Source: Candidatus Saccharimonadota bacterium
Lineage (GTDB): Bacteria > Patescibacteriota > Patescibacteriia > 2-12-FULL-60-25
DNA length: 32,000 nt
Direction: 5' to 3'
Assembly (NCBI GenBank): GCA_016699205.1
Contig: CP064964.1
Span: 780,001 to 812,000 of the forward strand
The notes beneath the pieces are model-generated. The model was not told the origin of the DNA and did not search any database. It saw only the letters and a list, made by a program, of their open reading frames with translations. A program made the position numbers and the translations under genes. Of the stretch, positions 1-31,096 are shown piece after piece (position 1 is the stretch's first letter; each line of letters opens with the position of its first letter).

Positions 1-1660
1 AGTTACCTTCACCAATGCCACCGGCACCAATACGACTTCCACCAATCTTTTTGGTTCGAACCTCGGTTTCTCAAACGCTACAGGAACCTCTTTGAACACA
101 AACACGCTTAATGCCGGTTCTGTCACCTTCGGCACGGCAACGGTTTCAGGCCTGACGTCTCTCCAGAACACGACGCTAACAAATGGAACCTCGACGAACT
201 TTGCTTCAACTGGATTGCTTTCGTTCTCGACGGCAACGGGTACCCAGATTCTTGCGAATATTGGTACGTTCTCGACGGCAACCGTCATGGGCGTCGCTGT
301 GTGTTTGCAGAACGGTGTTGGTTGTCCGAGCGGTACGGTTCTTTCCGATACGCTTCAGTCGGTCACGGCTCGCGGATCATTTACAACAACGACGGTTCAG
401 TTCTTTGGCGGCCTCACCACTTCCAACCTCACCGCCACCGGAACGACCTCACTTCAGAACACCACGGCCACCAATCTCGCTTCGACTGGATTGCTCTCGT
501 TTGTTTCAGCGACTGGCTCTACGCTTAACGCCAACTTCGCTTCCTTCGCTTCTGCAACGGTCGCGGGACAGGGGATCTGTCTCCAGAACGGTGTTGGCTG
601 TCCTTCGGCTGCCGCTGAAGCCGATACCCTCGCTTCGGTCACGAACCGTGGAGCCTTTGCGACCACAACCCTCACGCTCTTCGGCGGCCTCACCACTTCC
701 AACCTTACCGCCACCGGAACGCTCTCGGTTACAGGCGTTTCCTCCCTTGCCGGCGTTACCTTCACCAATGCCACCGGCACCAATGCCACGACGACGAATT
801 TCTTTGCGACTAATCTCGGCTTCTCAAATGCTACGGGCACTTCTCTGAACGTGAACGCGTTGTCTGCTGGCTCGGCTGTGCTTGGCACGGTGACCGTTTC
901 CGGCTCTACCTCGCTTCAGAACACAACTCTCACGAACGGAACCTCAACGAACTTTGCTTCGACAGGACTTCTCTCGTTCTCAACCGCGACTGGTACCCAG
1001 ATCCTCGCGAATATCGGTACATTCTCGACTGCCACGGTTTCTGGTATCGCGGTCTGTCTCGCGAATGGCGTTGGTTGTCCGAGTGGAACGGTACTTTCCG
1101 ATACCCTCCAATCCGTCACGGCTCGCGGCAGCTTCACGACGACCACGGTTCAGTTCTTTGGAGGATTGAGTGCGTCGAATATTACCGCGACCGGAACCAC
1201 ATCGCTCCAGAACACCACTGCAACGAATCTTGCTGCTACTGGATTGCTTTCGTTTACTTCAGCCACGGGAACTTCGTTGAATTCAAATAATGCCGCGATT
1301 GGAATTTTGTCTTTTGGTAGCGCGACCGGTTCTACGCTTAATACGAATTTCGCATCCTTCGCTTCTGCAACGGTCGCGGGACAGGGGATCTGTCTCCAGA
1401 ACGGTGTTGGCTGTCCTTCGGCTGCCGCTGAAGCCGATACCCTCGCTTCGGTCACGAACCGTGGAGCCTTTGCGACCACAACCCTCACGCTCTTCGGCGG
1501 CCTCACCACTTCCAACCTTACCGCCACCGGCACGCTCTCGGTTACAGGCGTTTCCTCCCTTGCCGGAGTTACCTTCACCAATGCCACCGGCACCAATACG
1601 ACTTCCACCAATCTTTTGGTTCGAACCTCGGTTTCTCAAACGCTACAGGAACCTCTTTGA
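1..1660 (+). CDS. giant repetitive surface-fibre/adhesin-like protein, fragment 1 of 3 (5' end outside window; closed by a 1-nt frameshift)
   Basis: The frame with codons starting at nt 2 has no stop from the window edge to tga 1658-1660, so the gene starts upstream. The ttg at 92 used by the ORF track is an internal Leu codon in the recurring ...[13 protein letters not shown]... junction. It encodes T/S/N/G-rich ~250-aa modules with CLxNGxxC loops followed by DTLxSVTxRGxF. The stop appears only because the T-run at 1614-1617 is T4, whereas the identical sister copies at 48-52 and 3118-3122 have T5. Confidence 0.85.
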   Translation, partial: VTFTNATGTNTTSTNLFGSNLGFSNATGTSLNTNTLNAGSVTFGTATVSGLTSLQNTTLTNGTSTNFASTGLLSFSTATGTQILANIGTFSTATVMGVAVCLQNGVGCPSGTVLSDTLQSVTARGSFTTTTVQFFGGLTTSNLTATGTTSLQNTTATNLASTGLLSFVSATGSTLNANFASFASATVAGQGICLQNGVGCPSAAAEADTLASVTNRGAFATTTLTLFGGLTTSNLTATGTLSVTGVSSLAGVTFTNATGTNATTTNFFATNLGFSNATGTSLNVNALSAGSAVLGTVTVSGSTSLQNTTLTNGTSTNFASTGLLSFSTATGTQILANIGTFSTATVSGIAVCLANGVGCPSGTVLSDTLQSVTARGSFTTTTVQFFGGLSASNITATGTTSLQNTTATNLAATGLLSFTSATGTSLNSNNAAIGILSFGSATGSTLNTNFASFASATVAGQGICLQNGVGCPSAAAEADTLASVTNRGAFATTTLTLFGGLTTSNLTATGTLSVTGVSSLAGVTFTNATGTNTTSTNLLVRTSVSQTLQEPL

Positions 1661-3165
1661 ACACAAACACGCTTAATGCCGGTTCTGTCACCTTCGGCAC
1701 GGCAACGGTTTCAGGCCTGACGTCTCTCCAGAACACGACGCTAACAAATGGAACCTCGACGAACTTTGCTTCAACTGGATTGCTTTCGTTCTCGACGGCA
1801 ACGGGTACCCAGATCCTCGCGAATATCGGTACGTTCTCGACTGCCACGGTTTCTGGTATCGCGGTCTGTCTCGCGAATGGCGTTGGTTGTCCGAGTGGAA
1901 CGGTACTTTCCGATACCCTCCAATCCGTCACGGCTCGCGGATCATTTACAACAACGACAGTTCAGTTCTTTGGCGGCCTCACCACTTCCAACCTCACCGC
2001 CACCGGAACGACCTCACTTCAGAACACCACGGCCACCAATCTCGCTTCGACTGGATTGCTCTCGTTTGTTTCAGCGACTGGCTCTACGCTTAACGCCAAC
2101 TTCGCTTCCTTCGCTTCTGCAACGGTCGCGGGACAGGGGATCTGTCTCCAGAACGGTGTTGGCTGTCCTTCGGCTGCCGCTGAAGCCGATACCCTCGCTT
2201 CGGTCACGAACCGTGGAGCCTTTGCGACCACAACCCTCACGCTCTTCGGCGGCCTCACCACTTCCAACCTTACCGCCACCGGAACGCTCTCGGTTACAGG
2301 CGTTTCCTCCCTTGCCGGCGTTACCTTCACCAATGCCACCGGCACCAATGCCACGACGACGAATTTCTTTGCGACTAATCTCGGCTTCTCAAATGCTACG
2401 GGCACTTCTCTGAACGTGAACGCGTTGTCTGCTGGCTCGGCTGTGCTTGGCACGGTGACCGTTTCCGGCTCTACCTCGCTTCAGAACACAACTCTCACGA
2501 ACGGAACCTCAACGAACTTTGCTTCGACAGGACTTCTCTCGTTCTCAACCGCGACTGGTACCCAGATCCTCGCGAATATCGGTACGTTCTCGACTGCCAC
2601 GGTTTCTGGTATCGCGGTCTGTCTCGCGAATGGCGTTGGTTGTCCGAGTGGAACGGTACTTTCCGATACCCTCCAATCCGTCACGGCTCGCGGATCATTT
2701 ACAACAACGACAGTTCAGTTCTTTGGCGGCCTCACCACTTCCAACCTCACCGCCACCGGAACGACCTCACTTCAGAACACCACGGCCACCAATCTCGCTT
2801 CGACTGGATTGCTCTCGTTTGTTTCAGCGACTGGCTCTACGCTTAACGCCAACTTCGCTTCCTTCGCTTCTGCAACGGTCGCGGGACAGGGATCTGTCTC
2901 CAGAACGGTGTTGGCTGTCCTTCGGCTGCCGCTGAAGCCGATACCCTCGCTTCGGTCACGAACCGTGGAGCCTTTGCGACCACAACCCTCACGCTCTTCG
3001 GCGGCCTCACCACTTCCAACCTTACCGCCACCGGCACGCTCTCGGTTACAGGCGTTTCCTCCCTTGCCGGAGTTACCTTCACCAATGCCACCGGCACCAA
3101 TACGACTTCCACCAATCTTTTTGGTTCGAACCTCGGTTTCTCAAACGCTACAGGAACCTCTTTGA
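1657..3165 (+). CDS. giant repetitive surface-fibre/adhesin-like protein, fragment 2 of 3 (internal, bounded by two 1-nt frameshifts)
   Basis: It has the same module sequence as fragments 1 and 3. It lies in the -1 frame relative to fragment 1 (start positions 92 mod 3 = 2, 1657 mod 3 = 1). After the G3 run at 2889-2891 (G4 in sister copies at 571-574, 1384-1387 and 3641-3644) the translation turns into P/R/S-rich nonsense ([19 protein letters not shown]...) and stops at 3163-3165. Its ttg start is again the internal SLNTNTL Leu codon. Confidence 0.8.
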
Positions 3166-6100
3166 ACACAAACACGCTTAATGCCGGTTCTGTCACCTTC
3201 GGCACGGCAACGGTTTCAGGCCTGACGTCTCTCCAGAACACGACGCTAACAAATGGAACCTCGACGAACTTTGCTTCAACTGGATTGCTTTCGTTCTCGA
3301 CGGCAACGGGTACCCAGATTCTTGCGAATATTGGTACGTTCTCGACGGCAACCGTCATGGGCGTCGCTGTGTGTTTGCAGAACGGTGTTGGTTGTCCGAG
3401 CGGTACGGTTCTTTCCGATACGCTTCAGTCGGTCACGGCTCGCGGATCATTTACAACAACGACGGTTCAGTTCTTTGGCGGCCTCACCACTTCCAACCTC
3501 ACCGCCACCGGAACGACCTCACTTCAGAACACCACGGCCACCAATCTCGCTTCGACTGGATTGCTCTCGTTTGTTTCAGCGACTGGCTCTACGCTTAACG
3601 CCAACTTCGCTTCCTTCGCTTCTGCAACGGTCGCGGGACAGGGGATCTGTCTCCAGAACGGTGTTGGCTGTCCTTCGGCTGCCGCTGAAGCCGATACCCT
3701 CGCTTCGGTCACGAACCGTGGAGCCTTTGCGACCACAACCCTCACGCTCTTCGGCGGCCTCACCACTTCCAACCTTACCGCCACCGGAACGCTCTCGGTT
3801 ACAGGCGTTTCCTCCCTTGCCGGCGTTACCTTCACCAATGCCACCGGCACCAATGCCACGACGACGAATTTCTTTGCGACTAATCTCGGCTTCTCAAATG
3901 CTACGGGCACTTCTCTGAACGTGAACGCGTTGTCTGCTGGCTCGGCTGTGCTTGGCACGGTGACCGTTTCCGGCTCTACCTCGCTTCAGAACACAACTCT
4001 CACGAACGGAACCTCAACGAACTTTGCTTCGACAGGACTTCTCTCGTTCTCAACCGCGACTGGTACCCAGATCCTCGCGAATATCGGTACGTTCTCGACT
4101 GCCACGGTTTCTGGTATCGCGGTCTGTCTCGCGAATGGCGTTGGTTGTCCGAGTGGAACGGTACTTTCCGATACCCTCCAATCCGTCACGGCTCGCGGAT
4201 CATTTACAACAACGACAGTTCAGTTCTTTGGCGGCCTCACCACTTCCAACCTCACCGCCACCGGAACGACCTCACTTCAGAACACCACGGCCACCAATCT
4301 CGCTTCGACTGGATTGCTCTCGTTTGTTTCAGCGACTGGCTCTACGCTTAACGCCAACTTCGCTTCCTTCGCTTCTGCAACGGTCGCGGGACAGGGGATC
4401 TGTCTCCAGAACGGTGTTGGCTGTCCTTCGGCTGCCGCTGAAGCCGATACCCTCGCTTCGGTCACGAACCGTGGAGCCTTTGCGACCTCAAGTGTCACGT
4501 TGTTTGGAGGGTTAACGGCTTCGAATTTCACTGCCACAGGAACTGCCTCGCTCCAGAGCACGACGGCTACAAATTTGGCAGCAACGGGACTCCTCTCATT
4601 CACTTCAGCGACAGGGACGACTCTTCGTGCGAATACTGCCGTCATCGGACTCCTGACTTACGGCAACGCCACAGGCGCCACACTTAACGCTAATGTGCTT
4701 TCTGCAACGACCGTTACTTCAACGGCGATGTTCGTGAACGGAGTTGCTGTTTGTCTTGCTAACGGCACGAATTGTTCGACGGCAGGTCTTGATACCCTCC
4801 AATCCGTCACGGCTCGCGGCTCCTTCACGACGACGACGGTTCAGTTCTTTGGCGGATTTGTTGCGGCCTCATCTAGTGTTACCGGAACGTTTGTCGTCGT
4901 CGGATCTTCTTCCTTGCGTAATGTCGACTTTACGGTTGCGACGGGTACAAGTGTTACAACCACCAACCTTTTTGGCACGAATCTTTTCTTCACTGGTTCG
5001 ACGGGTACAACGCTCGCAGTCACTCGTGGAACGTTGGGCAGCTCTACAGCGACCAATTTGTTTGTTGTCAATCTTGGCTTTATTGGATCTACGGGAACCA
5101 ATCTTCTGGCTACTGGATCCGTATCTACTACTAATCTTTTTTCAAATGCAGCCACCTTTGCAACGGCGACTGTTGCGGGACAGGGGATTTGTCTTTCCAA
5201 TGGCGTTGGCTGCCAATTTACGAGTACGGTTGGTCTCGATACGCTCCAGTCGGTCGTGGCTCGCGGAGCTTTCACCACCACGACGGCACAGTTCTTTGGC
5301 GGTCTTTCGACGAGCGATCTCACCGTAACATCGACCCTTTTGGTTACAGGCGTTTCCTCCCTTGCCGGCGTTACCTTCACCAATGCCACCGGCACCAATG
5401 CGACGACGACGAATTTCTTTGCGACTAATCTTGGCTTCTCGAGTGCTACCGGTGTTACCTTGATTTCCAACAACCTTACGGCAAACACCGCTTCTTTTAC
5501 GACGGCTACGGTTGCAGGAATCGCGGTATGTCTTGCTAACGGATCATTCTGTCCTCCGTCCGTTACGCCGAATTTACAAGCCGTAACTAATGTCGGAAAT
5601 GTTACGACAAATACGATTCAGTTTGCTGGAGGTACATCGACTGCTAATTTCTTTGTTCAGCGAAACATGGGTGTTGGTACATCAACTGGTTCGTTGACGA
5701 CGCGTCTTGCTCTTCAGTCATCTTCTACAAATTCAGAAGTGTTTCGTGTCTACAATACGTCTTATCGACCGATTCTCGCACTTGCAGAGGATATTTCCGG
5801 AAATGGACAGTTTATTTTGCGAGACTCGTCGGGTAATACGAGGGCAGAAATTTATGGTGCTCCAAATGGCTTCATGAATTTGTATGATTCGACCGGTGGT
5901 ACGGATTTCTCCTTCTTTTCTGGAAATGATAGTTATATCAACACAGGAGCATTCTTTGGTATTGGTACAAGCGTACCGAGCAGTACGCTGCATGTTGTCG
6001 GAGGAACGATTTTGCAGGGGAATACGACGGGTACCAATGTTACGTCAACAAACCTTTTTGCTACAAATATTGGATTTATAACAGCAACGGGTACCCAGAT

Positions 6101-9100
6101 CCTCGCAAACATCGGTACATTCTCTACGGCGACGGTTTCTGGTGTCGCTGTCTGTCTTGCGAACGGTGTTGGTTGTCCGAGCGGAACGGTGCTCTCCGAT
6201 ACCCTCCAGTCCGTTACAGCTCGCGGAAGCTTTACGACGACCACGGTTCAGTTCTTTGGAGGATTGAGTGCATCGAACCTCACCGCCACAGGTACGACCT
6301 CACTTCAGAACACGACGGCAACCAATCTCGCTTCGACTGGATTGCTCTCGTTTGTCTCGGCGACCGGCTCTACGCTTAACGCCAACTTTGCTTCCTTCGC
6401 TTCGGCTACCGTTGCCGGACAGGGGATCTGTCTTCAGAACGGCGTTGGTTGTCCTTCTGCCTCAGCTGAAGCTGATACCCTCGCTTCGGTCACGAACCGT
6501 GGAGCCTTCGCGACTTCATCTGTCACCTTGTTTGGAGGGCTAACGGCTTCGAATCTCACTGCCACAGGAACCACATCGCTTCAGAGTACGACGGCTACAA
6601 ATTTGGCAGCAACGGGACTCCTCTCATTCACTTCAGCGACAGGGACGACTCTTCGTGCGAATACTGCGGTTATCGGACTCCTGACTTACGGCAATGCTAC
6701 AGGTGCAACGCTTAACGCTAATGTACTTTCTGCGACGACCGTTACTTCAACGGCGATGTTTGTGAACGGTGTCGCTGTCTGTCTTGCGAATGGAACGAAT
6801 TGTTCGACGGCAGGTCTCGATACCCTCCAATCCGTCACGGCCCGCGGAAGCTTTACGACGACCACGGTTCAGTTCTTTGGAGGATTGAGCGCGTCGAACA
6901 TCACCGCCACCGGAACGACATCTCTCCAGAACACCACCGCTACGAATTTCGCTTCGACTGGATTGCTCTCGTTTGTTTCAGCGACTGGCTCTACGCTTAA
7001 CGCCAACTTTGCTTCCTTCGCTTCGGCTACCGTTGCCGGACAGGGGATCTGTCTTCAGAACGGCGTTGGTTGTCCTTCTGCCTCAGCTGAAGCTGATACC
7101 CTCGCTTCGGTCACGAACCGTGGAGCCTTCGCGACTTCATCTGTCACCTTGTTTGGAGGGCTAACGGCTTCGAATCTCACTGCCACAGGAACCACATCGC
7201 TTCAGAGTACGACGGCTACAAATTTGGCAGCAACGGGACTCCTCTCATTCACTTCAGCGACAGGGACGACTCTTCGTGCGAATACTGCGGTTATCGGACT
7301 CCTGACTTACGGCAATGCTACAGGTGCAACGCTTAACGCTAATGTACTTTCTGCGACGACCGTTACTTCAACGGCGATGTTTGTGAACGGTGTCGCTGTC
7401 TGTCTTGCGAATGGTATTAATTGTACAAATGTTGGCCTAGACACCCTACAGTCCGTGACGGCCCGAGGATCGTTTACGACAACGACCGCACAATTCTTTG
7501 GCGGTTTTGTTGCCGCTTCTTCATCCGTAACGGGAACATTTTCCATCTTTGGAGGTGACGGTACCACCGCTGCTGCACCAACGGCATTCCAAGCGCACGG
7601 AGGTACCGGAGGTATTTTAGGGACGACGGGATTCGCGGGAGGCGCGCTGACGTTGACAGGTGGCACAGGTGCCAGTACGACCTTACTCACTGCGGGTGGA
7701 CAAGGTGGATCACTCAATTTTATTGCTGGAAACGGTGGAGGAGCAGGGGCTGCACTTGGTATCGGAGCTACAGGAGGCGGAATCAATTTAACGGCTGGCA
7801 ACGGATCTTTAGGTGGTCTTGGAGGAGCAAATGGTAACGGTGGCAATATTACATTAAATCCTGGAGCGGGTTTTGGAACAGGTGCAGTAAATGGAAATAT
7901 TATTCTTGCGAATTTGAGAGGAAGTGTCGGAATTGGAACGACGAATCCGTTAGCAAAACTTGAGGTCCAAGGTGTTGTCTCATCGACCGGATTACTTGTT
8001 GCTTCGGATGCTGCTATTAATATTCCATCTGTTATTAAGGGTTTTGAGGGGCAAACGGCTAATTTGACTGAATGGAGGAATGCATCAGGCACACCATTGC
8101 TTGCCGTTACTGCGAGTGGCAGCTTGTCGTTTCTTACACCTACCGGAACGATTGTGATGGTATCGACAGGTACGCTGAATATTTTAGCCGGTACGAGCAC
8201 GGCGCTCTCGATGAGATATTTGAATGATAAATTCGGAGCGGCGTTGAATGCCGGTGCTTTCATGGACCGCAACTCGGCACTCCAAGAAGAATTTAATAAG
8301 CAGCGAACGGCTATTGCCGCTGATACCACAGGTGCTGCAGGCGCTGCATTTGGTGATGGAGGCGGTTGGGGTGTTTATGAAAATGGAACCTGTAATGTCA
8401 CGGCTTTGGCAGATACGGTGAATGGCATTATGCGCTTGGCGAAGTCTACCTTTGGCGGTGACGGCTGTTTGGTGATGATGGATGAAGCTTTGAATAACCC
8501 AAGAAGCATTTTTGATGCGGACAATTTGCCGGTGCTTCTCATGAAGATTCGGCCGAGTGCTATTGGAACAAATACGGATTATATTTACTCCGGTTTAGGT
8601 GACTCGACGGATGCTTTGCTTGCCGCCCCGACCAACTTTATCGGATTCGGAAACAGCGGTTCTACGACATGGGTCGGTTTGACCCGAAGCGCTGGAGCCC
8701 AGACGCAAGTCACTTGTACGGGCCAAACAATTTCTACGGCGAACTTCGCCCTGCTTATGGTCGAGGTCCGTTCAGCTACGGATGTCCGTTTCTTTGTTGA
8801 TAACGATGTGACGAACGGGGTTGACTTCGTTGAATGTGGAACGGGAAGCCAGACAAATATCCCGACCATTGCTCTTGCGCCGCAAATTCACTGGAATGAT
8901 GGTGCTGGCGATGCGACGACCAACTTGGATGTCGACTTTTTCCGTGCTTGGCAGGACGACGCTCCGGAAGAAGGTGGTAGTACGACAACGACTCCGAATT
9001 TCTACAGCATGTCGACTTTGGCGCAGTATTTCCCTGCGGATGACGTGAATTTGGTGCCAGGAACCGTGGTTTCCATTGACACGACTGCTACAAGTATCAA

Positions 9101-12100
9101 AGCCATCCCGACATTTGCCCCTTATGATCCAAATTTCTTGGGTGTTGTTGTGAACGATCCTGGTTTGATTCTTTCCAACGGAACGTTTGATGGTGTTCGT
9201 GTGGCTTCCCAGGGTCGTGCGCTCGTTATTGCGTCTAATGAGAATGGCGATATCGTGACGGGAGATGTTTTGACTACGGCATCGACAACTGGCGCTCTTA
9301 TGAAGGCTACGGGTCCTGGATTCGTTGTGGGTCGAGCGTTGCAACCACTTACAAGCTCCACGGGAACGATCGTTGTTCAGCTACAGCCGAATCACTACAC
9401 GCCTTCTGCTAATGGTGTTTACAGTATTCTGAGTGCGACGGGTTATTTGGCGGTTGGTGATCATGAGCTTCCGGCGGTTGGGTCTTCTGCTATCGCGCAG
9501 TTTGCTGCAACTACGGATACGTATCTTCAAGTGAATTTGCAGAACTTCTCAACCGGTACGAGTGCGTCATCGGATTATGTGGCGACTGCGGATAATGGAG
9601 ATGACTCGAGCTATTATGTTGACTTTGGTATCAATGGATCTGGCTATGATAATCCGGATTTTTCGATCGTTGGGGCGAATGACGGGTATCTGTATGTTCA
9701 TGGAGGCGACCTCGCTCTTGGTACTGCTAGCTCGGCAGATATTCTCTTTCATACGGGCGGTACGCTCGCAGAGAATGAGCGCATGCGCGTAACAACGGAT
9801 GGTTTGGTTGGTATCGGTACAAGCGTACCTTCATCGACCTTGCATGTGGTTGGTGACACGATTTTGGGGGTACTTACGTTTTCTCATGCGACGGGATTAG
9901 GCTTAATGACAACGAACCTTGTCTTTACCGATGCTACAGGAACAAATCTTGCGTTTACGGGAACGTTTAGCGGTGCGAATGCCGTCTTTACGGCGGTTAC
10001 AAGTACGTCGATCGCGACAACGAATCTCTTGGTTGATGGCAAGCGCGTGTGTTTGGAGGATGGAACCAATTGTTCCGTTGGATCAGCTTACAGCGCCTCG
10101 TCTTCCGCATCGGTTTCTGTTGGTGCGGAAACGGAATTGCTTGTCGTAACAACCACGCCAGCCTTTGCATCCAATGCGGTTTGGATTTCTGCTGATGCGC
10201 GTGCCGTGAACGCGAGTGGAGCTGATGGAACAACGGTGACATTGCGTATCCGCCGTGGCGATACGTGTGCGGCCGGAGTGCAGGTTGGCGTTGATCGTAC
10301 GGTTGATGTTGGTGTATCCGATTCCGATACGATTTCGACCAGCTTTGTCGATATGCCTGGGACGGCCAATGCGACGGCCTATCGTTTGTGCGCGCTTGGT
10401 AGCGGAGGAACACCTTCTGTGACCAATCGTTCAATGACCGTGCAGTTGATTAAGCAAGGCGCTGACTTGGGTGAAGTCTATTATTCTATTGATCGTACGA
10501 TTGATCCGGGTACGGTTGTCTCTATTGATGAGAACGGTGAGGCTTTGGTGAAGAAGTCAGGAGTGCCTTACGACGACCAGATGATCGGTGTTATTTCTAC
10601 GCGTCCAGGTCTTTTGCTTGCCGAGCATCCGCGTACGGATGGTGCGCCGGTTATCGTTGCTCTTTCCGGCCGTATTCCGGTGCGAGTGACAAAAATGAAT
10701 GGCGTGATTCGTGCCGGGGATTACCTTACGAGTTCACCGATTCCTGGTGTGGCCATGAAGGCGACCAAGGCCGGTCATATCTTGGGTCAGGCTTTAACCT
10801 CGTTTGACGGTGACGACGAGGGCGAGGTCATGGCATTTATCAAGAACGGTTTCTGGAATGGCCAGAGTGTTGCTGCGGATCGTGCGCAAACAGGCCGTTC
10901 GGTTCTCATGAACACGCTCGCCTCGATCGACGTATCGACGATTGACGTTTCTTCAACGGTATCCATGCTGAATGCTGATCGTATCGTGGCCTCCGAGGAT
11001 GTGGTTGCTAAATCATTGATCGGCGAGAGTTTAGCTGTCCGCATGATCGATAGCTTGAGCGGCGATTTGCGTTTGCAGATTGGCACAACCGGTACCCTTG
11101 GTCTCTATGTTGAAGGACAAGAGAATCCGGTGTTGAGCGTGGATGGAAGCGGTGTGTTGATCTTGCGTTCATTGGCGGCTGAGTATGTGAGTTCAACGCG
11201 CGTGACAACGGATCAATTGATTGCCGTTGATATCCAGTCGCCGACGATTGATTCCTTGCGCATGACGCTCGGAATGGCGACTACGTCATTAACGGATTTA
11301 ACCAATCGTGCCACTGAGGTCACGGGTGTTTTGGAGGAACTTGAGCGTCGAATGAGCGAACTCGCTTCATCCGTGAGCGCTACAGGCACATCGGATTCCG
11401 GCCTTGATGTTGATCAGCTGCGCGTGCAGGAGGGGATGGAGGTAGTGGGTGAGATTCGTGCTCCTGGTGGATTGCGCGTTGATACGCTTACGAGTATTGG
11501 TGATTTGATGACGATTGCCGGAAACGTTGAGTTTACTGGTCCTATTATGGTTAATCGTGATACGGCTGGATTTGCGGTGATTACGACTGGTATGAAGCGT
11601 GTGCGTATCGCCTTTGATCGACCGTATCTCGTGAAACCGGTTGTGCAGGCGACGGTAACTTTTGAGACGCTTGAAGAAGAGGATCCAGGTCAGGAGGAGC
11701 TTCGCATCCAGAGTTACTTTGATCAGAACATGCGTTATGTTGTGACACGTGTCACAAAGGAGGGCTTTGAGATCTGGTTTGATAAGCCGGTGCAGCAGGA
11801 TGTTCGGTTTAGCTGGCTCGCATTGGCTCCGAAGAATGCCGAGGAGGTTTTGTCTACGGATATGAACGATGCGCCAGTCCCAGAACCTGAACCGATCCCT
11901 GAGCCTGCTCCAGAGGTGACGCCGGAACCAGAGCCGGAAGTTGTAACGGAACCTGCTCCAGAGCCGATCCCTGAGCCGGAACCAGAAACACAGCCAGAAC
12001 CAGAAACAGCGCCTGAGCCCGAACCGATTCCCGAGCCTGTTCCAGAGGTAACGCCGGAACCAGAGCCGGAAGTTGTAACGGAGCCTGCTCCAGAGCCGAC

Positions 12101-12149
12101 TCCTGAGCCGGAACCAGCTCCAGAAGCACCAGTCTCCAATCCTTCTTAA
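3162..12149 (+). CDS. giant repetitive surface-fibre/adhesin-like protein, fragment 3 of 3 (2,995 codons, true C-terminus)
   Basis: This is one uninterrupted ORF. From 3162 to about 7500 it carries further T/S/N-rich modules with 13 CLxNGxxC-type loops. It has three [FV]GIGT[ST]xPxxxL[HE]V motifs (5955-6002, 7926-7973, 9807-9857), which I associate with tail-fibre-like proteins. A Gly-rich GGxGG region spans 7551-7900 and a possible jelly-roll/LamG-like region spans about 8210-8960. Two paralogous beta domains lie at 9009-9397 and 10458-10863. A heptad-like segment at about 11255-11390 is followed by a possible H-type-lectin-like end at 11559-11835 and a PEPEP tail at 11875-12146. The function is inferred only. 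Confidence 0.9.
6198..7439 (+). repeat. 2-copy tandem duplication, period 621 bp (207 codons), inside the giant gene
   Basis: The [10 protein letters not shown] codon string starts at 6198, 6819 and 7440. The core 6371-6790 matches 6992-7411 almost perfectly (for example, aggggatctgtcttcagaac at 6421 and 7042). A diverged third copy lies at about 4490-4800. Confidence 0.9.
11875..12146 (+). repeat. Pro/Glu-rich low-complexity tail with internal 132-bp (44-codon) duplication
   Basis: gaggtgacgccggaaccagagccggaagttgtaacgga at 11913 recurs as gaggtaacgccggaaccagagccggaagttgtaacgga at 12045. The translation is [29 protein letters not shown], twice. Confidence 0.9.
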
Positions 12150-12174: not shown

Positions 12175-12993
12175 ATGATCAAGCGTACTTCCGCGGTAAA
12201 AACTCCATCGTCCAGAGCCAAGGCTTCTCAAGCTCCAATCGCTTTGGAAACAGCTCCGATGACACCGGCTCCATCTAATGGATCTGGATACTCTCGCGTT
12301 ATTCCCATTGTTATTGCTCTTGTGCTTGTGATTGGTGGCGGTGCTTATTTTGTGAGTGCAGCCATGAACGGCAAGTCGGGTAGCGACATGTCGAATATCG
12401 AGGTTCGTGATGGAGTTGATCCAAAGGAAGTCGCAAATATTATTGAACGAGTCCGTGAGCTCGTCGTGGCGGATTCTGATGAAATGCCAACCGTTGCGAC
12501 GGTTCAGGATATCTCAGTTCTGCGTCCTCAGAATCCGACACTTTATCGAGACGCCCAGAATGGAGACAAGCTCTTGGTGTGGTCGGATAAAGTCGTTGTT
12601 TACTCGGCTACCAAGGATCGATTGTTGGTCGTTATGCCGATTAACGTGACTCCTGATACGACAACGCAGAATACGCCGCCTGATGCACGAGTTGCCGCAG
12701 CAACAGCAGCAGAGGAGCCAAGCGTTACCATCGAGGTCCGCAATGGATCGGCGACGCCTGGAGCTGCCCGTGTATTGAACGATAAATTGAAAGCGGAAGG
12801 ATTTCAGACGCTTGCTCCCGCCGATGCCAAGAATAAAGCGTATCCTGCCACGATTATCTATAATGCTACCGGCAAGGCGATTCCAAAGACGCTTGAGAAG
12901 CTGATTGCTTCAACTGGTGGAACGGTGGTTACGGCAGCAGAAGGGGAGGGAAGAACGAGCGCGGACCTGTTGATAATTATTGGCGCAAAATAA
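12175..12993 (+). CDS. membrane-anchored LytR_C (LytR/CpsA/Psr C-terminal) domain protein
   Basis: ATG at 12175. There is a basic/Pro-rich N-terminus and then one TM helix (VIPIVIALVLVIGGGAYFVSAAM). The C-terminus VTIEVRNGSATPGAARVLNDKLKAEGFQT...ATIIYNATGK...ADLLIIIG matches the LytR_C pattern (V.V.NG....GLA......L...GF). A strong terminator follows. Confidence 0.7.
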   Translation: MIKRTSAVKTPSSRAKASQAPIALETAPMTPAPSNGSGYSRVIPIVIALVLVIGGGAYFVSAAMNGKSGSDMSNIEVRDGVDPKEVANIIERVRELVVADSDEMPTVATVQDISVLRPQNPTLYRDAQNGDKLLVWSDKVVVYSATKDRLLVVMPINVTPDTTTQNTPPDARVAAATAAEEPSVTIEVRNGSATPGAARVLNDKLKAEGFQTLAPADAKNKAYPATIIYNATGKAIPKTLEKLIASTGGTVVTAAEGEGRTSADLLIIIGAK

Positions 12994-15570: not shown

Positions 15571-15600
15571 AAACACCTCGCAATACTGCGGGGTGTTTTT
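15571..15600 (+). terminator. rho-independent terminator
   Basis: 11-bp stem aaacacctcgc / gcggggtgttt (one G-U pair) with a 6-nt loop and a T5 tail, directly after the taa stop at 15568-15570. Confidence 0.8.
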
Positions 15601-15659
15601 ATTTACGAGACGCTATTGTCTTGCTCGAGTTATACTGATGAGCGATACTTATTAATAAT

Positions 15660-16541
15660 ATGTCCAAAGAAAATCCATTTTCTGGAAAACCTGAGGCGAG
15701 AGTTGAAAAGCGAGCTTCTAAGCTTACCGAGCAAAAAACAAATCTTTTGAAGCGTTCCAAGTGGGGCGGCTTGTTTGCTGGGATGATGGCTGTTGTAGGC
15801 GCTGCTAATGCAGCAGAAGCGCAGCAGCATCCTCGAGAGGGTGAGTTTCATATGGACTTTGACTGGCGTTCTGTTTCTATGGCGGAGCTTAATCAAGAAT
15901 GGACGCAAGCGATGCAGATGCTTCGTTCGACTGATGATTTGCTTGAAGCGGATGTAAACCGCCGTATGGTGTACGAGGGCTCGGTCGAGGAGCAAATTGA
16001 CACGGTTAACTTTAGACGGCGAGAACCCCAGGAGGAGGTGCATCTTGGTGACACGCAGGCGTTACGCGGTTTGGAAGGACATGTTATTGAGATTTCCTCC
16101 GTGAGAGGTTCAGTTTATCGTACGTTGAGAGAAGGTGACCGAGCCCAGAGTTCCGCGGTTAATCATCTTGGATTCCGCGTCTTTGATGTCTCTCCTGCGG
16201 CTTCTCGGCGTTTAGAGGCTACGGGGCGTCATCTCATCGAGGATTATGAAGCGGAAACCGCTGATCAGGCGCTTGCTTTGGTGATGGAAGAGGTGGGAAG
16301 AGCTGGGGCGGAAGAAGGCCATGTTCGGGAACTGTACCAAGCGAGAGAAGGAGCCCGTGTCGACCAGCTCTCGGTTAACACATATCTCGAGCATAGTTAT
16401 TTGTCTAATGTACACATCGGTGAAATGCAGCAGCTTCCAAATGGGCACTTCCGAGTACATGTAGAGGCTGACTTGCTTCGAGAGGCTCCTCCGGAACCAG
16501 TGTCAGCACCCGCCCCTACGCCTGAGCCGCTTCAATGGTAG
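15660..16541 (+). CDS. hypothetical membrane-anchored acidic protein (no family recognised)
   Basis: ATG start and 293 codons. It has a basic N-terminus, one hydrophobic segment (WGGLFAGMMAVVGAANAA), an E/D/R-rich body and a Pro-rich end (APPEPVSAPAPTPEPLQW). Terminators flank it on both sides. Confidence 0.6.
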   Translation: MSKENPFSGKPEARVEKRASKLTEQKTNLLKRSKWGGLFAGMMAVVGAANAAEAQQHPREGEFHMDFDWRSVSMAELNQEWTQAMQMLRSTDDLLEADVNRRMVYEGSVEEQIDTVNFRRREPQEEVHLGDTQALRGLEGHVIEISSVRGSVYRTLREGDRAQSSAVNHLGFRVFDVSPAASRRLEATGRHLIEDYEAETADQALALVMEEVGRAGAEEGHVRELYQAREGARVDQLSVNTYLEHSYLSNVHIGEMQQLPNGHFRVHVEADLLREAPPEPVSAPAPTPEPLQW

Positions 16542-21240: not shown

Positions 21241-21413
21241 GAGGAAATTTAACTTGGGATAATAGGGAATCTCTGTCGCCAGACAGGACTCCTGAGCACG
21301 GGCAAAAGCTTATAGGAAAGCCTTAAAATGGTCAAGATTGGCCCTTGTTTGGGGGTTATGATACGCTTTTTCCAGCCCAGTTCACGGGCAAACTCATATT
21401 TTATCTTGCCGAT

Positions 21414-21811
21414 ATGGACGAAATGCAAAAGGACCAGCAGTTTCTCGAATACGTGTTAAGTCCCTGGTGAATCACCCGGAAGACGTTAAAACCACCCGTG
21501 AAATCGACGATCGCGGCGTGAAAATCACGCTGCACGTTAACCCCGAGGATATGGGGTATATCATTGGACGCCAGGGTCAGACGGCCCGTGCGCTCCGCAT
21601 CTTGCTCAAGATCGTTGGCGCCAAGGATGATGCCCGCGTCAGCATGGTGATCTACGAGCCAGAAGAAATGCGCCGTCAGCATCAGGAAAAGAAGGGCGCT
21701 ATGATGGGAGAATCGATGGGAGCTCCGATGGCAGGCGATCGACCTAAGCCGCGCGTTCACGGGGACGCTGGATTGGTTTCGGATGACGACTTGGCAGATC
21801 TCGGAATCTAA
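21414..21811 (+). CDS. KH-domain RNA-binding protein (YlqC/UPF0109 family) with apparent 1-nt frameshift near 21453-21457; intact part 21467-21811
   Basis: The ORF from gtg 21467 encodes (V)NHPEDVKTTREIDDRGVKITLHVNPEDMGYIIGRQGQTARALRILLKI, which is a KH core (GxxG). The expected family N-terminus (...FLEYVVKSLV-) is split. ATG 21414 gives MDEMQKDQQFLEYV in the +1-shifted frame, then VKSLVNHPEDV follows in the main frame. A ~45-aa C-terminal extension is atypical. Confidence 0.7.
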
Positions 21812-22618: not shown

Positions 22619-23539
22619 TCAGGCATATTTGTCCATGAGGCGTGTACCGAGATCGATGAGGTATGGCGCGCCGGTGTGCGGGTTGCCGCGCTCGAGATCG
22701 CGCTCCAAGAAGTCGGGGAGCGTCTCGTCCTGGTATCTCGCCGAGGCGATGCCCCAGGAGATGGCCGCCGTCGAGTCGACATCGCCGCCCCAGCGGATCG
22801 CCTTGAGGAGAATCTCTTTTAGCGAGCGCTCCTGCGAGACGAGATGCGCGACCGACCACACGGAGGTGAGGCCGATGGAGCCGTAGGGACCGCTCACGAC
22901 GGGAACGCCGGGCCAGGGCTTGTTGAAGATCTTGAGGAATTCCGCATCTTCTCTGGGGAGATGGCTTGTGCAGTAGACTCCGATCTTGCTGAGCGGTCCG
23001 TCCTCGTAAAGCGCGTAGTGGCTCATGAGGGCGACGGCGCGGGCGCTGAAGCGTCCGACGGGCGTGTCATGCGTGATCGTGGCCTGCAAGGTCGCGATCT
23101 CGAGCAGAGGCCCGATCTCACGAATCACGCCGAATGGTACTGCACGCATGGCCGCGCCGTTCTTGTCGGAATCCGGACGCAGGCGTTCCAAGAGTTCTGC
23201 GCCGGAGTCGATCTCCTCGAGCAGGGCTTGGAAGCCGCGCGAGTAGCCCTTACGCCGGCCGCCGCGAGCGAACTCGGCCACGTAGGCGTCCGCGAACTGG
23301 AGCTTGGTGTAGGGGGCGTCGTGCGCGATGAGGACGCGGGCGTTGGCCGCGGACATCTCGGTGTCGTCGGTGTAGAGACCGGGATGATCCTGATGCGTCG
23401 GATGCTTGATGTAGCGCTGGAATGCGAGACATTGAGCGCGAATGTCGTTGTCGCGCGGAAACTTGATGTACTCGGTAGCCATGCCGTACGCATCGCCCAT
23501 TCCGATGCGGAGGAGAAGGTTGTTGTTTCGGAAGCGCAT
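22619..23539 (-). CDS. ADP-ribosylglycohydrolase (ARH/DraG) family protein
   Basis: 306 aa with GMGDAYGMATEY near the N-terminus, YTDDTEMS, GAAMRAVP and WGGDVDSTAAISWG. These are the Asp-rich metal-binding motifs of the ARH fold. GC content is markedly higher than in the flanks. Confidence 0.8.
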   Translation of the reverse strand: MRFRNNNLLLRIGMGDAYGMATEYIKFPRDNDIRAQCLAFQRYIKHPTHQDHPGLYTDDTEMSAANARVLIAHDAPYTKLQFADAYVAEFARGGRRKGYSRGFQALLEEIDSGAELLERLRPDSDKNGAAMRAVPFGVIREIGPLLEIATLQATITHDTPVGRFSARAVALMSHYALYEDGPLSKIGVYCTSHLPREDAEFLKIFNKPWPGVPVVSGPYGSIGLTSVWSVAHLVSQERSLKEILLKAIRWGGDVDSTAAISWGIASARYQDETLPDFLERDLERGNPHTGAPYLIDLGTRLMDKYA

Positions 23540-29288: not shown

Positions 29289-29594
29289 TTATTTTGTCTC
29301 CTCTGCGGTTCCTGGTTCTGCGACCTCTGAATCGCTATTTGCGACGGCGAGGACTTCATCGACGCTGGTGAGGCCATCCAGGGCTTTGAGGAGGCCATCT
29401 TGAGCCATATTGATCATTCCGGCGGCTGTTGCCATCTCTGCGATGCGGGCTTCTGAAACGTCTTTTTTCAGGACTTCTTCTTCAATCTCATTGGTCATCG
29501 TGAAGATTTCATAGATACCGACACGGCCTTTGTAGCCATCATCTGTAGGTGTGATTTTGTCCGGATCCGGCTCCATAAAGTTGAGCTTGTCCAA
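29289..29594 (-). CDS. PilB/GspE-family secretion ATPase, C-terminal fragment (separated by 1-nt frameshift)
   Basis: GYKGRVGIYEIF...EEV...ARIAEMATAAGMINMAQDGLLKALDGLTSVDEVL is the conserved C-terminal end of type II/IV secretion ATPases. The reading frame stays open upstream to the A5 run (plus-strand T5 at 29614-29618). Confidence 0.85.
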   Translation of the reverse strand: MDKLNFMEPDPDKITPTDDGYKGRVGIYEIFTMTNEIEEEVLKKDVSEARIAEMATAAGMINMAQDGLLKALDGLTSVDEVLAVANSDSEVAEPGTAEETK

Positions 29595-31096
29595 ATCGAC
29601 AGAGTAGCCGGAGTTTTTGGAATGGCGCCGAGAATTCTTTTTACTTGATTCAATTTTGCGGAAGAGAGTTTTGCGGGGCGGGACATCTCGGGCTTCAGGC
29701 GTCGGACGAGGCGCTGACCGATAACGGCGTTCAAGGCAGGCGCAAGCAAGAATGGCTTTACGCCCATCGACATAAAGCGCGGAATGGCGCCGGCAGCGGA
29801 GTTAGTGTGGATGGTTGAGACGACGAGGTGACCGGTGAGAGCGGCCTGAATTGCGATTTCTGCCGTTTCCGCATCGCGGATTTCACCGACCATGACAATG
29901 TCAGGGTCTTGGCGCAGAATCGAGCGCAAGCCTTTGGCGAAGTCGTAATTGCGGCTGTGATCGATTTGGCTTTGGTTGATGCCTTGGAGCTTGTATTCAA
30001 TCGGATCTTCAAGCGTGATAATTTTTTCTGTCGGCTGATTGAGTTTTTTGAGGATGGCGTAGAGCGTGGTTGTTTTACCGGAACCGGTCGGACCGGTGGT
30101 GATGATCATGCCGTTTGGCTTCTCGATTTCACGTTCCAAGTCTTCGAGAGCTTTGCCGCGGATACCGAGGTTATCGAATTCAAGAGCGATGGCTTTAGGG
30201 CGCAAGATACGCATGACGACGGACTCGCCAAAAGCCGTCGGCAAAAAGCTGACACGGATATCGATCTTTTCATTGGTGAGATAGATGGTGATGCGGCCAT
30301 CTTGCGGAACATCCTCGACGTTGATTTTAACGCCGGCCAAAAGTTTGAGACGTCCGATGATTTGTTTCCAGGCGACGCGAGGGAGGCTGGCGGCGTCGCG
30401 CAGTTTTCCGTCGATACGGAAACGGATTTTTACGTCTTCTTCCTCGGCTTCTACGTGAACGTCCGAGGTTCCGATCTTGAGCGCTGCACCAAAGATAAGC
30501 GTGATGATGTCGGTCGTGTTTACTTCTCCGATTTTCTTTTGGAGATCGGTAAAGTTGGAAATTTCTTTTTCGTATTTTACCAAGTCGGCTTCCTCAATGC
30601 GGTAGCCGTAGATGACTTCTTTTGGAGTAGGGAGCTTGTCGTAGAGTTTGAGGGCGTATTCAAAACTGTCTTCCGATACAAGATAAATCTGGATGTTGGC
30701 GCTGCGGTCTTTTTTGATGCGTTCCGCAAGCTTATCGATTTCCGGACTTGGTGTTGGTGTTGCGAGACGGACCTCATCGCCGACAAGAAAAAAAGGCAGC
30801 ACGCGCATAGTGGCGGCGATATCTTTTGTGATCAGCGAAAGTGCTTCCGGTGCAATCGGGAAGCCGCGGAGCGTGATGTAGGGGAGACTGAGCTGAGCGG
30901 CCTTTTCTTGAACAAGTTTTTCTTTTTCTCCCTGTTTGATCTCGCCCATGCGTTCCTCGAGTTTGGCGGCAACGCTTGGGGGAGTTTTAGGTGCAGCTCC
31001 AGCTCCAGGTTTGGCTGGAGCTGGAGTGGCGGAAGCGCCTCCTGCGGGCTTAGCCTGCTTCAGGAGGTCTTCAATGGAAGAGGCTTTTGGAGGCAT
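29495..31096 (-). CDS. PilB/GspE-family type IV pilus / type II secretion ATPase, N-terminal and catalytic part
   Basis: It has a T2SSE_N-like region (LSLPYITLRGFPIAPEALSLI...), Walker A TGPTGSGKTTTLYA, an Asp box ITLEDPIEY, Walker B RQDPDIVMVGEIRD and a His box STIHTNSA. The last ~40 codons (TPATLSIWTSSTLW...) are out-of-frame nonsense following the A5 run. Confidence 0.9.
   Translation of the reverse strand: MPPKASSIEDLLKQAKPAGGASATPAPAKPGAGAAPKTPPSVAAKLEERMGEIKQGEKEKLVQEKAAQLSLPYITLRGFPIAPEALSLITKDIAATMRVLPFFLVGDEVRLATPTPSPEIDKLAERIKKDRSANIQIYLVSEDSFEYALKLYDKLPTPKEVIYGYRIEEADLVKYEKEISNFTDLQKKIGEVNTTDIITLIFGAALKIGTSDVHVEAEEEDVKIRFRIDGKLRDAASLPRVAWKQIIGRLKLLAGVKINVEDVPQDGRITIYLTNEKIDIRVSFLPTAFGESVVMRILRPKAIALEFDNLGIRGKALEDLEREIEKPNGMIITTGPTGSGKTTTLYAILKKLNQPTEKIITLEDPIEYKLQGINQSQIDHSRNYDFAKGLRSILRQDPDIVMVGEIRDAETAEIAIQAALTGHLVVSTIHTNSAAGAIPRFMSMGVKPFLLAPALNAVIGQRLVRRLKPEMSRPAKLSSAKLNQVKRILGAIPKTPATLSIWTSSTLWSRIRTKSHLQMMATKAVSVSMKSSR

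Follow-up and report, generated by a model that had tools for sequence, protein, structure and literature searches.

The closest cellular counterparts of the gene described here are the mosaic adhesive trimer (MAT) fibres Bd2133, Bd1334, Bd2439, Bd2734, and Bd3182 of Bdellovibrio bacteriovorus, structures on the surface of this predator by which glycans of the prey are recognised (Caulton et al., 2024, PMC10769870). Two phage fibres offer further points of comparison, the gp12 appendage of phi29 (PDB 3SUC, 3GQH, and 6QZ9) and the tail fibre of the T7-like Legionella phage LME-1, which carries a hexamer of tail-fibre trimers (PMC12407071). We analysed a 32,000-nt stretch of contig CP064964.1 (positions 780,001 to 812,000 of the forward strand; hereafter the window), which opens with the 3' part of a giant fibre-like gene. 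On our reading, to which we give a probability of roughly 0.65, this is a single gene for a secreted surface fibre of a Candidatus Uhrbacteria cell, a mosaic of the phage-tail-fibre and MAT type that would grip the host. Unlike the organism that bears the MAT fibres, its owner would be an ultrasmall bacterium from the CPR (candidate phyla radiation), a group without an outer membrane.

The gene shares several traits with those of the MAT fibres. It is chromosomal, and its orthologues begin with a signal sequence followed by a β-rich N-domain; it encodes a β-helix unit homologous to that of Bd2133, a capping-loop motif close to the MAT consensus, and a mosaic of exchangeable adhesive domains near the end, and a phage-type self-processing chaperone occurs in part of the family. 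In contrast to the MAT fibres, the protein is four to seven times longer, and about 60% of it consists of a lysine-free Cys-loop module that neither MATs nor phages nor the PDB were found to contain. Its chaperone-like barrels are of the phi29 G2 type rather than the S74 type (there is no S74 Pfam match and no SDxxxK motif), it has several internal lectin-type domains, and a conserved C-terminal extension, H-lectin-like and Pro/Glu-rich, runs for 430 residues past the second barrel. MAT fibres, which are homotrimeric throughout, end either in an S74 chaperone-protease (SDxxxK) or in an adhesive tip that folds by itself; here the tip and the lectin folds are internal with G2 barrels after them, a layout not described for MATs.

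When one base is added at each of two frame breaks, the plus strand from nt 2 to nt 12149 reads as 4,049 codons and a stop. The restored frame has no internal stop and no start codon within the window, and the 5' end lies beyond it. An earlier note on this DNA, made from the letters alone, had proposed a single frame of about 4,050 codons, open at the 5' edge, after two single-base bridges, and the count agrees with it. As deposited, the open stretches are nt 2-1657 in frame 2, nt 1432-3162 in frame 1, and nt 2847-12146 in frame 3, closed by the stop at nt 12147-12149; over 12.3 kb, off-frame stretches included, frame 1 holds 113 stops and frame 2 holds 136. We located the breaks by aligning five paralogous copies of the DNA repeat, a 753-nt super-unit (276 + 477 nt) whose copies are up to 99-100% identical. 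By this alignment each frame change is one base missing from a short homopolymer, and in the restored translation the same protein modules stand on either side of each break. The stretch from nt 2 to nt 12149 is the 3' 12 kb of a single gene (Table 1).

In GenBank the same DNA is annotated as IPH19_03825 (QQR60513.1, nt 1657-3165) and IPH19_03830 (QQR60514.1, nt 3162-12149), both listed as proteins of a Candidatus Uhrbacteria bacterium. They are identical to two open reading frames (ORFs) of the window (P0032 and P0076), so that the public record treats the gene as fragments.

Table 1. Coordinates of the features of the giant fibre gene and of the gene that follows it (window numbering; aa, residue of the restored translation).
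Feature	nt	aa	Strand	Basis and remarks
Giant fibre gene	2..12149		+	Frame analysis and repair; intact orthologues
Shaft	2..7529	1-2510	+	20 T/S/A/G/N-rich modules; DNA repeats, motif counts, composition, module alignment
Frame break 1	1614..1617		+	AATC-TTTT-GG, T4 vs T5 in paralogous copy at ~3119; frame 2 to frame 1
Frame break 2	2889..2891		+	GGACA-GGG-ATC, G3 vs G4 in four paralogous copies; frame 1 to frame 3
Insert within shaft	5565..5999	1856-2000	+	Ends in capping-loop motif 1 (nt 5955-5996)
Gly-rich stretch	7530..7967	2511-2640	+	Composition (33% Gly); ends in capping-loop motif 2 (nt 7926-7967)
ConA-like (L-type lectin) jelly-roll domain	8157..8969	~2720-2990	+	AlphaFold2 (AF2) predicted local distance difference test (pLDDT) 80-95; Foldseek
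PGTVVSID barrel 1	8997..9401	3000-3134	+	phi29-gp12-type; AF2 pLDDT ~96; family alignment
β-helix unit	9417..9869	3140-3290	+	Homologous to Bd2133; ends in capping-loop motif 3 (nt 9807-9848)
21st Cys-loop shaft module	9870..10085	3291-3362	+	Cys loop at aa 3351; aligns with shaft modules
β-sandwich 'tip'	10089..10463	3364-3488	+	AF2 pLDDT ~80, 8 strands; centre of strain-variable cassette
PGTVVSID barrel 2	10464..10856	3489-3619	+	Peptidase_G2-like, starts at D3489 in GA/DLGE; AF2 pLDDT ~94
Low-confidence linker	10857..11543	3620-3848	+	AF2 secondary structure; 29-residue helix aa 3764-3792 (nt 11289-11375)
H-type-lectin-like β domain	11544..11831	3849-3944	+	AF2 pLDDT ~90; best conserved between strains
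Pro/Glu-rich tail	11847..12146	3950-4049	+	Imperfect 18- and 72-nt tandem repeats (Tandem Repeats Finder)
LytR_C-domain gene	12175..12993		+	Pfam; 25 nt after fibre stop

Three independent assemblies hold the gene in one piece. Two are contigs whose LytR_C protein is identical to the one downstream of the fibre gene in the window (L001, from JGI, and L003, GCA_963851785.1); there the syntenic gene is called as one product of 4,164 and 4,352 aa, respectively, and its 3,325 C-terminal codons were translated in both without an internal stop. The third comes from a different Uhrbacteria species (L006, JAIOPK010000006.1), where the syntenic intact ORF has 4,824 codons and matches the window with 63.5% identity in one alignment of 1,245 columns covering aa 2732-3955. 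The giant gene of the earlier note is borne out by these single ORFs of 4,164, 4,352, and 4,824 aa. The same note had itself raised the alternative that several short genes were wrongly assembled into one array, which would then be collapsed or chimeric. Repeat copies are indeed up to 100% identical over 300 nt, and in the L002/L067 contig the locus is broken into many short ORFs. That explanation is nevertheless hardly credible, given the same domain order in one continuous ORF in all three assemblies, the many family members of 4-7 thousand aa, and the fragmented L002/L067 sequence itself, which is near-identical to an intact one apart from one-base offsets.

The frame breaks might instead be genuine in this strain, leaving a pseudogene or an off-state variant produced by slippage in short homopolymers. 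The deletions do stand in the deposited sequence, where GenBank annotates separate coding sequences, and surface-adhesin genes are often subject to inactivation and phase variation. We consider this quite unlikely, however. Runs of 4-5 bases are far shorter than typical phase-variation tracts, and the 3,100 codons downstream of the breaks show neither another stop nor signs of decay. The same assembly also splits a conserved KH-domain (KhpA-like) gene (nt 21390-21811, plus strand) in two frames by a private change of GG to G at ~21454, which is not present in L001 or L003; in tblastn the L001 protein matches the window in two pieces, in frames 1 and 3. Other genes are broken in L001 and L003 by one-base indels private to each, and such scattered indels interrupt housekeeping genes in the sister contigs. 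Because the syntenic orthologues are intact and this assembly splits the KH-domain gene by a one-base deletion, both frame breaks are, judged from the sequence comparisons, most likely homopolymer errors of sequencing or assembly. The scattered private indels, a paralogous fibre gene (described below) that leaves its frame at different points in two assemblies, the megabase-scale contigs, and the homopolymer context point to long reads as their origin.

Two further differences between the sister assemblies were seen. The ADP-ribosylglycohydrolase gene (nt 22619-23539, minus strand) is intact in the window (306 aa) and split into 135 + 157 aa in L001 by a one-base difference at window position 23074. 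A P-type ATPase gene is split in L002. Both are further signs of indel errors in these assemblies.

The missing 5' part can be gauged from relatives. Comparison with L067 suggests at least ~580 further codons upstream of the window, and the whole gene probably has ~4,600 codons or more. The L006 and L067 orthologues have their N-terminus in common, and the start of the orthologues reads MEPKRVVKIKRTFRKTIATILSLIQLSGMGLF...AYA-ATP, with a conserved domain after it. In four of them (P0036/L067, L006, P0077, and P0097) a basic n-region and a 17-residue hydrophobic segment can be read at the start. The orthologues are thus, by sequence, proteins that start with a hydrophobic signal or anchor, although the AYA/A cleavage point sits unusually far from the hydrophobic core. 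The conserved N-domain behind it (TLGYQGRLKN..., ~115-140 aa) is β-rich and is present in the orthologues and at least 25 related loci; it stands where MAT fibres have a conserved β-rich domain of ~130 aa, next to the signal peptide. A PDB search with it gave no match, and a sequence search returned 15 short, mostly unnamed fragments.

Beyond the window, the genome has a second, paralogous fibre gene with the same N-domain and shaft modules (IPH19_03350 = P0038; on the L001 contig, P0039). Its called product ends in a Pro/Arg/Ser-rich out-of-frame translation, at different points in the two assemblies, and this gene too is probably longer than annotated.

The shaft makes up 62% of the in-window protein. 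Its modules are 90-208 aa long and partly arranged as the 753-nt super-repeats, and every module closes with a C-x2-[ND]G-x2-C loop, with cysteines seven residues apart and a consensus end of ATVAGxxVCLxNGxxCP. All 48 cysteines of the protein can be paired as such loops or lie inside globular domains. The earlier note had given T/S/N/G modules to the N-proximal two thirds; the composition agrees, and the boundaries can now be drawn at 20 modules plus a 21st farther downstream. The 2,510 shaft residues include no lysine, no tryptophan, and a single histidine. Lysine first appears at residue 2653, so that nt 2-7958 (aa 1-2652) encode a lysine-free run; in the L006 orthologue a single lysine lies between residues 63 and 3566, and lysine-free runs of 1,300-1,900 residues occur in other family members. 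This depletion might reflect protease resistance or the avoidance of modification. N-glycosylation sequons are not enriched in the shaft (71 observed against 68 ± 7 in shuffles).

The module stands outside any named family, as the earlier note had suspected. It gave no significant match in Pfam, NCBIfam, or the PDB, and matched PHROGs of unknown function at a sub-threshold level only. PDB sequence and profile searches with the shaft returned chance-level matches (cholera toxin A and designed repeat proteins), and we likewise dismissed as chance a match to the SctD model TIGR02500 (E = 1.2e-3, far below cut-off). The module was found neither in 50,697 phage genomes searched by tblastn nor in IMG/VR contigs. 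A profile search of 1.84 billion cluster representatives, on the other hand, yielded 83 proteins with the shaft module, many of 4,000-6,800 aa. The named sources of relatives with this module are all Patescibacteria or probably mislabelled metagenome-assembled genomes. Several GTDB contigs with shaft-module relatives (L007, L012, L019-L022, and L025) bear the title 'uncultured Gammaproteobacteria bacterium'; these bins are probably mislabelled or contaminated, because of their gene content and the otherwise Patescibacteria-only distribution.

The distal part of the protein behaved differently. Profile searches and Foldseek comparison of two AF2 models of the distal third, built with family alignments, a kind of check that the earlier note had proposed, related several distal domains to fibres and lectins and the shaft to no family, and the affinities to tail fibres and adhesins named in that note took the form of homologies to Bd2133, phi29 gp12, and the LME-1 tip, a ConA-like fold, and, in homologues, H_lectin. 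Within the β-helix unit, aa 3172-3287 align with the Bdellovibrio fibre Bd2133 (PDB 8ond_A, E = 2e-6; 8oml weaker); the unit also matches a phage 'tail fiber protein' by tblastn (H15), and a PHROG of the name 'tail fiber protein' was matched at E = 1.8e-7. The motif [FV]GIGT[ST]xPxxxL[HE]V, noted before in three copies, lies at aa 1986, 2643, and 3270, and fits the MAT capping loop V-G-G/N-pi-x-x-P-x-x-x-L (PMC10769870) except that its third position is Ile. In the Bd2133 alignment, the second copy is covered by a third, weak matched stretch, at the end of the region that had been singled out for its GGxGG pattern and is Gly-rich. By its resemblance on reading the sequence, the insert within the shaft may be a β-helix unit like the one at aa 3140-3290. 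The jelly-roll-like segment of the earlier note has a predicted ConA-like fold. Its Foldseek matches are SO2946, ERGIC-53, VIP36, legume lectins, and BoNT Hc-N (E 1.6e-7 to 5e-5; TM-score normalised to the target 0.5-0.64), and it gave no Pfam sequence match.

The two PGTVVSID...MKAT domains had been listed among tail-fibre and adhesin elements. Both are present, the first with PGTVVSID at aa 3020 and MKAT at aa 3101 and the second with PGTVVSID at aa 3503 and MKAT at aa 3586, but they are better described as chaperone barrels of the phi29 type. The family profile matches 6qz9, 3gqh, and 3suc at E 1e-3 to 5e-3, models of the 'Preneck appendage protein barrel' in BFVD superpose with a root mean square deviation of 2.8-3.2 Å at 29-30% identity, and one barrel homologue scores 29.6 bits against PF11962, above its cut-off. 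Barrel 1 has a weak Pfam match to XM1_gp53. We take the self-cleavage site of gp12 to be S691/D692-F-A-E695, with Asp at P1' and Glu three residues later. The family profile aligns A3488/D3489-L-G-E3492 of barrel 2 with gp12 691-695 (S691-DFAE), so that D3489 corresponds to D692, and the PDB chain of the released chaperone (3gqh) starts at exactly gp12 D692. In barrel 1 the Asp and Glu of the site are replaced (S-T-L-A-Q), and barrels that follow ConA-like domains in relatives have S/T...Q in place of D...E. From these alignments, barrel 2 looks like a divergent Peptidase_G2 relative that has kept the cleavage-site residues.

The likeness to phi29 gp12 extends from the barrel fold and the cleavage-motif alignment to the placing of a barrel directly after the tip, and phage fibres have as their standard C-terminal layout a tip and then a barrel whose cleavage motif is intact. 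Unlike gp12, the protein has two barrels, the first without the Asp and Glu, and 430 residues follow the second, whereas the whole gp12 chaperone has 163. We consider it possible rather than probable that barrel 2 acts as an intramolecular chaperone which would cleave itself between Ala3488 and Asp3489 and expose the tip at the end of the fibre, as phi29 gp12 does. Among phages, the nearest relatives of barrel 2 found by tblastn come from jumbo phages (Sinorhizobium phage Phosso, 41%; Agrobacterium phage Atu_ph07; Pseudomonas phage PA5oct, 34%), in which the region is labelled hypothetical, virion structural protein, or 'baseplate wedge subunit and tail pin'. A match of the barrel profile to the giant protein GhpA of Aureispira (E = 9e-4, in 34-residue stretches with per-stretch E > 9) was too weak for homology.

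Between the 21st shaft module and barrel 2 lies the tip, whose profile matches residues 525-619 of 'orf22' (PDB 9EFK, E = 5e-5). This protein is almost certainly the LME-1 tail fibre, because its 18 chains match the hexamer of tail-fibre trimers in that phage (PMC12407071). The tip sandwich is thus homologous to the distal part of a phage fibre; unlike the protein described here, that fibre has 658 aa, is attached to a virion, and has the single domain in common.

The tip is also the part that is swapped between close strains. In L003, which belongs to the same species as the window, the flanking LytR_C and SpoIID genes have 100% and 99.96% DNA identity, respectively, whereas nt 9870-10463, the shaft module and the tip, show no detectable DNA similarity. 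Protein identity to L003 is 39% in the tip, 69% in barrel 2, 57% in the linker, and 100% in the H-lectin-like domain, which is also 100% identical to that of L001. Compared with L006, a more distant species, the tip has 84% identity. A diverged tip amid near-identical surroundings indicates that a ~1.6-kb cassette centred on the tip was replaced within the species. Module number and order of the shaft also vary between strains. A diversity-generating retroelement acting on the tip was rejected as a source of the variation, since the divergence of 60% extends across the whole cassette and is not confined to adenine-templated sites, and since a Pfam scan of the window's ORFs of at least 100 aa showed no reverse transcriptase.

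We infer host attachment from the homologies and from this strain-level replacement of the tip. The fibre could instead be structural or self-adhesive, serving as an envelope layer, in cell-cell aggregation, or in attachment to flocs or biofilms, with no part in host recognition. Its downstream neighbours LytR_C and SpoIID are envelope genes, three lectin-type folds could bind any glycan, there is no known host, and the source was presumably activated sludge, to judge by the IPH locus-tag series. We hold this to be unlikely, because the part that is swapped between near-identical strains is a homologue of a phage tail-fibre tip, and such swapping is typical of receptor-binding proteins under host-range selection. 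In addition, the Bdellovibrio MAT fibres, the closest characterised cellular relatives, recognise prey (PMC10769870).

Past barrel 2, the earlier note had expected a coiled coil, a lectin-like terminal domain, and a PEPEP stalk. The last is confirmed as a tail of which aa 3951-4049 are 36% P and 26% E. The coiled coil comes down to the one predicted 29-residue helix in the linker. The lectin-like domain is held up by its homologues, which match Pfam H_lectin (PF09458) significantly (P0005 with 25.4 bits, above the cut-off; E < 0.01 in 7 of 43 homologue fragments), and less well by its own score, given below. Motif checks on all 4,049 residues found no LPXTG, GGxGxD/RTX, or S74 SDxxxK motif and no hydrophobic or membrane segment.

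The neighbourhood is chromosomal rather than viral. The fibre and LytR_C genes are probably co-transcribed, because a terminator scan found no terminator-like site in the gap between them, and their adjacency is kept in other Uhrbacteria (L005 and L006). Farther downstream, on both strands, are genes for SpoIID, an ORFan, ClpP, a DHH-family protein, RbfA, SMC, S16, the KH protein, TrmD, and others. The earlier note had placed envelope genes and a pilus ATPase next to the fibre, and LytR_C, SpoIID, and a PilB-type ATPase were identified. Upstream, as read in L067 (where the gene pair occupies 3637-5597), lie genes for a polysaccharide flippase, a hexapeptide-repeat (LbH-type) protein, a dockerin-like protein, and a membrane protein. 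The dockerin-like protein (258 aa) has a dockerin type I domain (Pfam E = 8e-7); the membrane protein (400 aa) combines a signal peptide and an FN3-like domain with a membrane anchor at its C-terminus. The pair stands directly before the fibre N-domain in L006, L008, L014, L015, L034, and L036, and in L010, L013, and L021 only the membrane protein holds this position. By this recurrence, the dockerin-like, membrane-protein, and fibre genes form a conserved predicted cassette, in which the upstream pair could be an anchoring or assembly partner of the fibre. The 400-aa protein was also considered as a cohesin and rejected, as sequence searches gave FN3- or Ig-like matches only.

With phage tail fibres and appendages as the best named matches of several domains, and with one N-terminal fragment labelled 'phage baseplate assembly protein gpV' by JGI, the gene might be thought to belong to a prophage, a tailocin, or another integrated phage-derived particle. 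We regard this as very improbable. No phage structural, replication, or lysis genes lie within 10 kb upstream (in L067) or 20 kb downstream, housekeeping synteny is kept across species, the orthologues have an N-terminal signal sequence, and the shaft module is not in the phage collections. The giant adhesins LapA/SiiE, which use type I secretion, and the Gram-positive LPXTG proteins Ebh and Embp resemble the protein in size, tandem repeats, and presumed adhesion, but unlike them it has no RTX/type I signal, Ig-like repeats, or LPXTG, and its parts are of the tail-fibre kind. We exclude that the gene encodes a prophage fibre, an RTX adhesin, or an LPXTG adhesin. The grappling-hook protein GhpA of Aureispira (5,898 aa, PDB 9FLP) and the giant proteins of Omnitrophota (bioRxiv 10.1101/2023.11.21.568195), which capture prey or hosts, offer a functional analogy only, as very large extracellular proteins of bacteria dependent on other cells; they show no convincing homology, and their architecture is different.

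Two other loci in the window deserve mention. A ~970-bp segment between SpoIID and ClpP (nt 15574-16539), with a 293-aa ORF (nt 15660-16541) that has no Pfam match, is present in the window and L003 and not in L001/L002, an insertion/deletion polymorphism between close strains. The ATPase, of PilB/GspE type (T2SSE E = 9e-106; an MshEN domain is also present), is encoded at nt 29495-31096 on the minus strand, 17 kb downstream of the fibre gene. To our knowledge, type IV pili are the sole host-interaction machinery so far characterised in Patescibacteria.

As we picture the secreted host-gripping fibre, the chains would form a homotrimer ~0.2 µm long, scaled from Bd3182 (922 aa, 550 Å). Its N-terminal end would fix it to the cell, perhaps by way of the membrane protein whose gene is conserved upstream. 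The variable β-sandwich, aided by the lectin-like domains, would bind glycans or proteins on the surface of the host bacterium, and binding by the tip would then set the host range. A more elaborate version, which we find doubtful, is that the cassette of dockerin-like protein, type I membrane protein, and fibre, carried by Uhrbacteria and related Patescibacteria, builds a cell-length trimeric appendage derived from phage tail fibres with a lineage-specific shaft of lysine-free modules looped by disulfides, that phi29-type self-cleavage between Ala3488 and Asp3489 exposes the swappable tip as the primary determinant of the host cells to which an ultrasmall episymbiont can attach, and that host range evolves by exchange of tip cassettes as in phages.

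Several points weigh against the proposal of a host-gripping fibre or against parts of it. The evidence for the fibre comes from genes and monomer models. The N-terminus lies beyond the window and was read from orthologues, including the sister contig L067 via P0033. The AF2 monomer models give the shaft and β-helix parts at low confidence, which is compatible with obligate oligomers and no proof of them. The TNF-like lectins that Foldseek returned for the whole model, including BC2L-C-N, PLTL, and Pgp3, were assigned to the tip sandwich by domain size alone, without query coordinates. Barrel 2 itself matches PF11962 at E = 3e-4 with 20.7 bits, below the 25-bit cut-off, and self-cleavage would free 561 residues that include the most conserved part of the protein and would need a separate role. 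The H-lectin-like domain, finally, scores E = 0.085 and 13.4 bits against the H_lectin cut-off of 24 bits, and its family profile matched no solved H-type lectin in the PDB.

The design principle of the fibre is known. In the searched literature we found no description of this size class, of the lysine-free Cys-loop module, of G2 barrels within a fibre of cellular origin, of the conserved three-gene cassette, or of such fibres in CPR. Probable homopolymer errors in long-read assemblies split this gene family into fragments annotated as 'hypothetical protein' and so hide it in public records. How ultrasmall CPR bacteria and Patescibacteria find and hold their hosts is largely unknown, and the locus offers a concrete, testable candidate with receptor-binding and assembly modules and a tip that is naturally swapped between near-identical strains. 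If our reading is true, the design of phage tail fibres and MAT fibres would reach from predatory Proteobacteria to CPR, in a size class of 4-7 thousand aa.

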